IMG/VR virus record: IMGVR_UViG_2869924733_000009
Direction: 5' to 3' (one strand)
DNA from: a virus
Lineage: Duplodnaviria > Heunggongvirae > Uroviricota > Caudoviricetes
Length of the DNA: 15,526 bases
Shown here: in pieces, positions 9,216 to 9,753 of the stretch
How positions within the stretch are numbered: position 1 is the stretch's first letter
Layout of the letters: every line of letters starts with the position of its first letter
Translations under genes and position numbers: made by a program
Notes under the pieces: model-generated
Told to the model about the DNA's origin: nothing
Database searches by the model: none
The model's input: only the letters and a program-made list of their open reading frames with translations

Positions 9216-9355
9216 TTTTGTGATGCGGTGAATGCGGCTAAGCGCACGCGGAACAGTTAAAACCAAAAACAGTGTTATGGGTGGATTCTCTGTATCCGGC
9301 GTTAATTGTTAACTGGTTAACGTCACCTGGAGGCACCAGGCACCGCATCACAAAA
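9216..9355. promoter_or_regulatory. Perfect 15-bp inverted repeat pair (TTTTGTGATGCGGTG at 9216-9230 and its complement at 9341-9355) flanking 110 bp, just upstream of the small-ORF/exonuclease operon
   Basis: Read directly. The enclosed segment carries the GTTAA-rich block GTTAATTGTTAACTGGTTAAC (9301-9321). Right arm ends 22 bp before the 9377 ATG. Confidence 0.5.
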
Positions 9356-9376
9356 CTCATTGTTGAGGGCGCGATA

Positions 9377-9565
9377 ATGAAAACGTTATTACCAAACGTT
9401 AATACGTCTGAAGGTTGTTTTGAAATTGGTGTCACTATCAGTAATCCTGTATTTACTGAAGAGGCCATTAACAAAAGAAAACACGAACGGGAGTTATTAA
9501 ATAAAGTATGCATTGTTTCAATGCTGGCCCGTTTACGTCTGATGCCAAAAGGATGTGCACAATGA
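9377..9565 (+). CDS. Small protein, 62 aa, three Cys; first gene of the exonuclease operon
   Basis: ATG at 9377 with GAGGG 7 nt upstream; stop overlaps the next start (ATGA at 9562-9565). Confidence 0.5.
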   Translation: MKTLLPNVNTSEGCFEIGVTISNPVFTEEAINKRKHERELLNKVCIVSMLARLRLMPKGCAQ

Positions 9566-9753
9566 ATCCAGTATTTGCACTTATTCTGACGGTTTTTCTT
9601 GTTTCCGGAGAGCCAGTTGATATTGCAGTCAGTGTTCACAGAACAATGCAGGAATGTATGGCAGCAGCAACCGAACAGAAAATTCCAGGCAACTGTTATC
9701 CGGTCGATAAAGTTATTCACCAGGATAATAACGAAATCCCGGCAGGATTTTAA
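9562..9753 (+). CDS. Small protein, 63 aa, with N-terminal hydrophobic segment (signal peptide or membrane anchor) and two Cys
   Basis: ATG at 9562 with AAGGA 8 nt upstream; MNPVFALILTVFLVSGEP hydrophobic N-terminus; translationally coupled to the preceding ORF. The overlapping minus-strand ORF 9238-9783 looks like low-complexity noise. Confidence 0.55.
   Translation: MNPVFALILTVFLVSGEPVDIAVSVHRTMQECMAAATEQKIPGNCYPVDKVIHQDNNEIPAGF

Follow-up and report, generated by a model that had tools for sequence, protein, structure and literature searches.

An STnc100-like pseudoknotted RNA domain closed by a long helix between dicF and dicB of a Qin-type prophage

What does a long inverted repeat do when it stands directly upstream of the small genes of a prophage, and does it act as DNA or as RNA? 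The question is raised by a 15,526-nt stretch of DNA from a tailed virus (Caudoviricetes; IMG/VR record IMGVR_UViG_2869924733_000009), called the window here. An earlier note, made from the letters alone, had described a perfect 15-bp repeat pair ahead of two small overlapping open reading frames and an exonuclease gene, and had read the whole as a regulated three-gene unit. For the repeat it had offered a looped operator pair, a long RNA stem in a 5' leader or a MITE-like relic, and for the small proteins, exonuclease partners or inhibitors or Kil-like host-interfering proteins.

The locus and its genes

The locus belongs to a Qin-type lambdoid prophage, of whose dicBF early-left operon it forms the distal part. 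The DicF small RNA (sRNA), a structured spacer, dicB, ydfD and a ydfE-type exonuclease gene follow one another:

9150-9207, + strand: DicF sRNA, with intrinsic terminator and U-tract; the 53-nt form spans 9150/9151-9202
9377-9565, + strand: dicB, 62 aa with three cysteines, cell-division inhibitor
9562-9753, + strand: ydfD, 63 aa, DUF1482 lysis protein
9847-12288, + strand: ydfE-type exonuclease, 813 aa, intact

Positions 8237-9838 are 96.6% identical over 1602 nt to the Qin prophage of Escherichia coli K-12, the homology setting in 38 nt upstream of ydfA and stopping just short of ydfE. This long-studied K-12 operon and the locus are near-identical orthologues, and the repeat coincides with a reported RNase III site. 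The stretch with the leader was found by megablast in 4651 of 5426 complete E. coli genomes, at which RefSeq annotates dicB (in thousands of genomes), ydfD/DUF1482 and an exonuclease. The genes of the operon and its RNase III processing have been studied since about 1988-1990, and the finding as first stated adds nothing new; what is modestly new is that the spacer is related to STnc100, that it recurs ahead of other toxic genes and that it forms a pseudoknot.

DicF, which the earlier note had missed, was recognized by Rfam model RF00039 at 9151-9202 (76.7 bits against a cutoff of 48; E = 9e-16). It agrees with the K-12 dicF annotation and ends a few nucleotides before the left arm of the repeat. 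At gathering thresholds, Rfam returned DicF and one tRNA from the window and nothing else.

The genes dicB and ydfD encode known, characterised host-toxic proteins, and the suggestion of Kil-like host-interfering products was borne out. DicB matches Pfam PF05358 over its full length (residues 1-62 of 62; 132.1 bits against a cutoff of 27), YdfD matches PF07358 (DUF1482; 87.9 bits against a cutoff of 25), with RefSeq names for ydfD matches including 'lysis protein YdfD', and kilR of Rac prophages has this leader before it as well. Acting through MinC, DicB inhibits cell division, and it blocks certain phage receptors too (PMC6832061, PMC5069750). The lysis protein YdfD targets IspG, and the lysis it causes is suppressed by DicB (PMC8835842). 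A role for either protein as an exonuclease partner or inhibitor found no support. The lengths of 62 and 63 aa and the ATGA overlap of the ydfD start with the dicB stop (9562-9565) were as first described; the gap between the right arm and the first frame is 21 nt and not 22 bp, the ATG lying at 9377 rather than 9378. In both frames, differences between alleles fell mainly at the third codon position, with 436/268/216 differences at positions 3/1/2 among 31 dicB alleles and 219/126/64 among 25 ydfD alleles.

A search for the DicB protein in other species returned Escherichia and Shigella loci only. E. coli-type copies of dicB or of the leader, with 86.5-98% identity, are present in records named Aeromonas phage AP1, Actinobacillus phage vB_Apl-pPE4 and a Veillonella parvula MAG (H31, H49 and L007); they are probably contamination or mislabelled sequence. 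The 813-aa exonuclease contains an Exonuc_VIII match (124.8 bits, residues 57-189) and a Rv2179c-like 3'-5' exoribonuclease domain (228.1 bits, residues 632-803) in Pfam, so that an N-terminal region of the one type is joined to a C-terminal domain of the other. A DUF4224 protein, an integrase and a tRNA-Ser lie further downstream.

As a description of the transcription unit, three genes proved too few: ydfABC-dicF-dicB-ydfD-(ydfE) form one operon with a promoter upstream (PMC10448788). No promoter-like site was predicted on the + strand between 8800 and 9900, and an independent dicB promoter was rejected on that ground. Upstream of 8237, the K-12 sequence is replaced in the window by an IS66-family composite (2740-8212), which sits between a gene for a DicA/RacR-like repressor (2078-2497) and ydfA and contains nested duplications in inverted orientation: 3631-5098 repeats 6745-8212 as its reverse complement, and 2740-3630 likewise repeats 5495-6385, as 5134-5502 does 6385-6753. 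Since homology to K-12 Qin begins only at 8237, the usual dicBp/operator region lies about 5.5 kb from the operon here. The composite thus parts the operon from its usual promoter region, which makes expression in this window uncertain.

The repeat as the closing helix of a conserved RNA domain

The repeat is helix P1 of a + strand RNA, which closes a pseudoknotted domain of about 150 nt with five helices (P1-P5), located downstream of the DicF terminator and upstream of the dicB ribosome-binding site. A repeat finder placed its arms at 9212-9230 and 9341-9359 (19 nt, 95% complementary with one mismatch, 110 nt apart), around a perfect 15-nt core at 9216-9230/9341-9355 whose coordinates and 110-bp interior had been given exactly in the earlier note. 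It is the sole perfect inverted repeat of at least 15 nt with a spacer of at most 200 nt in the window, and none appeared in 200 shuffles of the window. Folding of the RNA of 9140-9400 gave a minimum free energy (MFE) structure in which the two arms pair and enclose several small hairpins (-95.8 kcal/mol, z = -5.3). The elements of the domain are as follows:

9212-9230, + strand: P1 5' strand (left arm), from the repeat finder, MFE fold and RNAalifold
9234-9249, + strand: P2 hairpin (GCGGC...GCGCACGC), from RNAalifold on 32 representatives, with 99.4% of cells paired
9250-9252 with 9295-9297, + strand: P3, enclosing a variable insert (9261-9294), with compensatory changes at two pairs
9254-9260, + strand: pseudoknot 5' strand CAGUUAA, invariant and single-stranded in the nested fold
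9298-9324, + strand: P4 hairpin, stem 9298-9305 with 9317-9324, loop UUGUUAACUGG (9306-9316)
9309-9315, + strand: pseudoknot 3' strand UUAACUG, within the P4 loop
9326-9340, + strand: P5 hairpin (CCUGG-AGGCA-CCAGG), directly abutting the P1 3' strand
9341-9359, + strand: P1 3' strand (right arm), from the repeat finder and RNAalifold

The GTTAA-rich block that had been noticed between the arms is real, and constitutes both strands and the loop of P4. Conservation of the fold was assessed with RNAalifold on 32 representatives drawn from diverse homologues. Across these sequences 98.5% of cells were paired, and 9 of the 32 pairs changed on both sides; none of 500 shuffles reached any of the pairing or covariation measures, and sliding the partners reduced pairing to 28-41%. 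Four pairs of P4 were changed on both sides, P5 carried a U-A to G-C exchange in 5 sequences, and a U-A pair of P1 was replaced by G-C in one Rac variant. The P3 insert varied in both length and sequence among 64 variants, while the junction nucleotides (GAAU) and the AGGCA loop of P5 were invariant.

Approximately 11% of paired cells were G-U, and a covariance model built from the leader alignment scored 178 bits in the + orientation versus 30 bits in the reverse. Compensatory and G-U changes that preserve pairing on the + strand only, together with this difference in score, indicate that the selected molecule is the + strand RNA and not the DNA. The long RNA stem in a 5' leader is therefore the one of the three original suggestions for the repeat that stands. 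ARAGORN found nothing in the domain, and a tRNA-like or tmRNA-like reading was rejected. No terminator-like site was found at 9340-9400, where the dicB ribosome-binding site follows the domain directly.

To examine the pseudoknot, 151 distinct copies of the family were extracted from a second scan. The segment that follows P2 and the loop of P4 were complementary in copy after copy, despite differing sequences. A count of the longest helix was not discriminating (6 bp was reached by 95% of the cognate and 45% of the non-cognate pairs, and by 31% of shuffled loops), and was replaced by an energy matrix over 21 sequence classes of the wider family with a permutation test. Mean duplex energy was -10.2 kcal/mol for cognate versus -5.25 kcal/mol for non-cognate combinations, a cognate mean that none of 20000 permutations reached; the cognate loop was the best partner for 9 of the 21 classes and among the top three for 17. 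The homologous positions of the STnc100 RNA of phage 933W read CUGGUG and UACCAG. The structure line of the Rfam STnc100 consensus contains no such pairing, and neither the kinship of the spacer with STnc100 nor the covarying pseudoknot seems to have been annotated.

Relatives of the domain

By model scores and shared fold, the window domain is clearly homologous to STnc100, as a divergent relative that lacks a terminator and is embedded in a leader. Under E-value thresholds, at which alone the match surfaced in the Rfam search, RF02076 aligned to 9214-9354 with 38.8 bits (E = 3.6e-7) over model positions 21-154 of 206 and with the same order of helices; this score is below the 47-bit gathering cutoff for formal membership. 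Other copies of the domain also scored below the cutoff (43.0 bits in phage P7, 35.6 in a Klebsiella phage and 30.8 in contig L016). The helix architecture of the Rfam consensus line agreed with the independently derived RNAalifold structure. Reciprocally, the leader model, which was built without STnc100 sequences, matched the 933W STnc100 with 64.8 bits (E = 9e-20) and found two further copies in phage D6. The 933W copy itself lies 75 nt after stxB2, scores 207.7 bits to RF02076 and has no convincing promoter before it. Among annotated enterobacterial sRNA families STnc100 ranks with the most abundant, and no function is known for it (PMC9029176, PMC12370729).

Copies of the STnc100 class also occur in arrays. 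Many viral contigs (L140, L145, L156, L190 and L204) contain 2-4 copies, commonly at spacings of about 261 or 468 nt, and phage D6 (L011) has three within 5 kb (871-997, 2486-2636 and 3666-3804). Each arrayed copy has its own matched pseudoknot sequence. In one prophage type, seen on contig L016 (4747-5234), DicF, an STnc100-like domain, IsrK and a C4 antisense RNA are strung before a Rha/antirepressor-like gene.

A pattern scan of viral contigs returned 120 loci with 64 distinct full-length variants. The bracketed segment lies directly upstream of kilR in Rac prophages, K-12 included; the domain also lies upstream of tciA in phages P1, P7 and D6 (in the ban operon in P7 and D6) and, in Klebsiella phages, before a small open reading frame and a DUF1482 homologue. 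Overall, the first downstream genes were dicB, kilR, tciA, the Klebsiella small frame, a gene for a 77-aa hydrophobic protein and the IsrK-C4-Rha module. The domain lies 20-70 nt before the start codons of unrelated genes, several of which are known or annotated as host-toxic. Helix P1 measures 19-20 bp in Qin and about 30 bp in Rac; in the Klebsiella phages its sequence is different and its length 16-25 bp.

The sRNA that precedes the Rac leader was also inspected. The 3' half of KilS (L134 2906-3003, K-12 Rac, - strand) scored as DicF with 39.1 bits, below the cutoff, and its 5' end resembles the right arm of a hairpin that lies upstream of DicF in Qin. KilS ends at a terminator directly before the leader, and the order KilS-leader-kilR mirrors DicF-leader-dicB.

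Four prophages retain dicB or kilR although the 5' half of the domain is deleted, from which it follows that an intact P1 is not needed for retention of those genes. The four truncated leader copies (L003, L044, L053 and L067) begin at one and the same nucleotide, window position 9293 (TATCCGGCG), and each is fused to a different reverse-strand gene that lacks its N-terminus. Two partial genome matches (H21 and H25) start at this same point. A common right end with four unrelated left partners is not the pattern of random deletion.

RNase III processing and competing explanations

In K-12, a 72-nt DicF is made from the full-length mRNA in an RNase III-dependent manner, according to two papers that both cite Faubladier et al. 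for it (PMC5069750, PMC9438474). Counted from the DicF start at 9150, the 72-nt end given in those citing papers maps to about 9221, 19 nt past the end of the 53-nt form, which places the reported RNase III-dependent end inside the left arm, at its middle. Gordon et al. 2017 enter as a known site, in their Table S1, position 1649470, which falls within the domain in the dicF-dicB spacer; reads there numbered 0 and 0 in the wild type versus 26 in an rnc deletion, from a repressed operon. At 19 bp with one mismatch, plus outer pairs, P1 reaches the near-continuous length of an RNase III substrate, which is roughly two turns (about 20 bp or more). A later study gives a 190-nt DicF species an RNase III-dependent 5' end; it describes RNase III at that side only and makes no mention of the spacer (PMC10448788). 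Two further features bear on processing:

8939-9024, + strand: upstream hairpin, about 22 bp with small defects; fold -40.9 kcal/mol, z = -2.8; listed by the repeat finder too
9365-9371, + strand: dicB Shine-Dalgarno region GAGGGCG, with a partner CGCCCUU (9198-9204) predicted by duplex and MFE folding only

The upstream hairpin is a candidate RNase III site for the 5' end of the 190-nt species, which would be expected near 9014, in the right arm of that hairpin.

These observations suggest a processed leader. RNA that reads through the DicF terminator would form the long P1 and be cut by RNase III near 9221 and presumably near 9351, the 2-nt 3' overhang rule of the enzyme putting the partner cut at about 9350-9352. 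The cut would yield the 72-nt DicF of the K-12 reports as cited; it would presumably also excise a structured RNA of about 128 nt and leave a dicB-ydfD mRNA whose leader is about 25 nt long. We give a probability of roughly 70% to this explanation as a whole, comprising the dicBF operon, the STnc100-like domain closed by P1 and the RNase III cut. Of its components, the gene identities, the RNA fold with its conservation and the homology to STnc100 were established here; RNase III dependence and the 72-nt end are reported, in the citing literature, for the 96.6%-identical K-12 locus; we infer the exact cut sites, the masking of the Shine-Dalgarno sequence and the effect on dicB and ydfD expression. 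Helix P1 is only 8-9 bp long in the copies of phages P1, P7 and D6 and in the 933W STnc100, so that RNase III cutting cannot be the general function of the fold and is a lineage-specific use of it.

Predicted read-through folds extend P1 outward and bring CGCCCUU, the tail of the DicF terminator, into pairing at the helix base with the dicB Shine-Dalgarno region. In these models, the pairing competes with the stable DicF terminator hairpin. A comparable predicted extension reaches the kilR Shine-Dalgarno sequence in Rac and is absent in the Klebsiella copies. Cleavage would presumably free the dicB Shine-Dalgarno sequence from the base of the helix, and could unmask dicB translation or, alternatively, expose the mRNA to decay. 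In the MFE read-through folds, the DicF 5' seed UGGUGACGUUU (9153-9163) also pairs with dicB codons 2-5, AAACGUUAUUA (9380-9390), over 11 bp with 3 G-U pairs, which may be chance.

That the domain, once excised or read through, acts in trans as a regulatory RNA like its relatives STnc100 and PasD, Hfq-associated prophage sRNAs, the long stem serving only to release it, is unlikely, and it is compatible with processing by RNase III. It would fit the homology to STnc100, copies of which are abundant transcripts in EHEC, one visible on a Northern blot (PMC5331693), and the properties of PasD, which is Hfq-dependent with RIL-seq targets (PMC8550237) and is reported to be related to STnc100 (preprint 10.64898/2026.05.13.724894). 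However, the window copy lacks an intrinsic terminator and U-tail, the usual Hfq-binding module, its conserved loop sequence is consumed by the intramolecular pseudoknot, and wild-type K-12 had zero reads at the spacer position listed by Gordon et al. 2017. We consider it rather improbable that the domain is instead a cis-acting sensor or protein-binding leader, which would gate translation of the toxic genes or block Rho loading in the 175-nt gap, with RNase III incidental. The compact pseudoknotted fold with its invariant GAAU junction and AGGCA loop, and its recurrence 20-70 nt before genes as unrelated as dicB, kilR, tciA and small Klebsiella and transmembrane frames, are what such a leader might look like; yet bona fide members also stand at 3' ends with their own terminators, as in 933W, or in tandem arrays, the Shine-Dalgarno sequence lies outside the conserved core, and no ligand or protein partner is known.

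DNA-level readings, among them the two of the earlier note, fared worse. A pair of operator half-sites that loops the DNA, or a cruciform, is highly improbable. A perfect 15-bp repeat would suit protein binding, and GTTAAC palindromes lie between the arms, but on the opposite strand, or in a DNA site with symmetry, the G-U cells would become A-C mismatches, substitutions in the arms are compensatory and keep pairing rather than sequence, and the internal helices covary as well; moreover, DicA is reported to have its operators upstream, around dicA and dicBp (PMC10448788). To the idea of a MITE-like relic, in which the arms would be the terminal inverted repeats of a small non-autonomous transposon, we attach next to no weight. 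Inverted termini around about 110 bp and thousands of copies across E. coli genomes resemble such an element, but there is no target-site duplication (the flanks are AAAG and TTGT), the copies in the examined records and the sampled annotated matches lie at the same place, upstream of dicB, kilR or tciA, and the interior is a conserved, covarying RNA fold.

Beyond the processed-leader explanation, a broader picture may be entertained, which we offer tentatively and hold to be doubtful. The STnc100-class fold might be a modular pseudoknotted cassette that temperate enterobacterial phages insert into operons, in many cases immediately ahead of host-toxic genes (dicB, kilR, tciA and small membrane proteins). 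In Qin and Rac, P1 would have been lengthened into an RNase III gate that matures DicF or KilS and licenses toxin translation. The pseudoknot would then be a defining feature of the family, which would not be an ordinary base-pairing sRNA, and a very abundant enterobacterial 'sRNA' family would carry a covarying feature that has so far gone unannotated. Apart from this conjecture, the 175-nt spacer between dicF and dicB, which most E. coli genomes contain without annotation, belongs to the STnc100 class, with a conserved five-helix pseudoknotted fold common to the spacer, the leaders of kilR and tciA and those of the Klebsiella phage genes. A testable role is thereby offered for a very common RNA family without a known function, namely that of an RNase III-processed gate before toxic genes.

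The closest known system is the Qin prophage of K-12, which is orthologous, with the same DicF, the same ATGA overlap of dicB and ydfD, and a spacer that scores 172 bits with the leader model. K-12 ydfE is a pseudogene cut by IS2, whereas the exonuclease of the window is intact, and the window P1 is fully Watson-Crick at positions where the K-12 P1 has two G-U pairs. The KilS-kilR spacer of Rac is alike in its succession of a DicF-like sRNA with terminator, the domain, a cell-division toxin, a second small gene and an exonuclease, and scores 160 bits with the leader model; however, its downstream genes, kilR and ydaE, are of different families from dicB and ydfD, and its P1 of about 30 bp contains a bulge. 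The 933W STnc100 and the window domain share the closing helix, the GAAU junction, the order of hairpins, P5 with its AGGCA loop and a pseudoknot of compensatory sequence (CAGUUAA/UUAACUG in the window versus CUGGUG/UACCAG in 933W). In contrast, the window domain is without STnc100 model positions 1-20 and the 3' terminator part (155-206), in which 933W has its own Rho-independent terminator (model positions ~170-200), and it has a different P2, a much longer P1 and an embedded position in a leader instead of standing alone.

Long imperfect helices cut by host RNase III are found in polycistronic phage RNAs, in the lambda N leader, at lambda sib and at the T7 early mRNA sites, where such cuts separate functional units and alter the fate of the flanking RNAs. 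The lambda and T7 sites are simple hairpins, whereas the helix of the window closes a conserved, multi-helix pseudoknotted domain, and, unlike at those sites, its upstream product is a regulatory sRNA.
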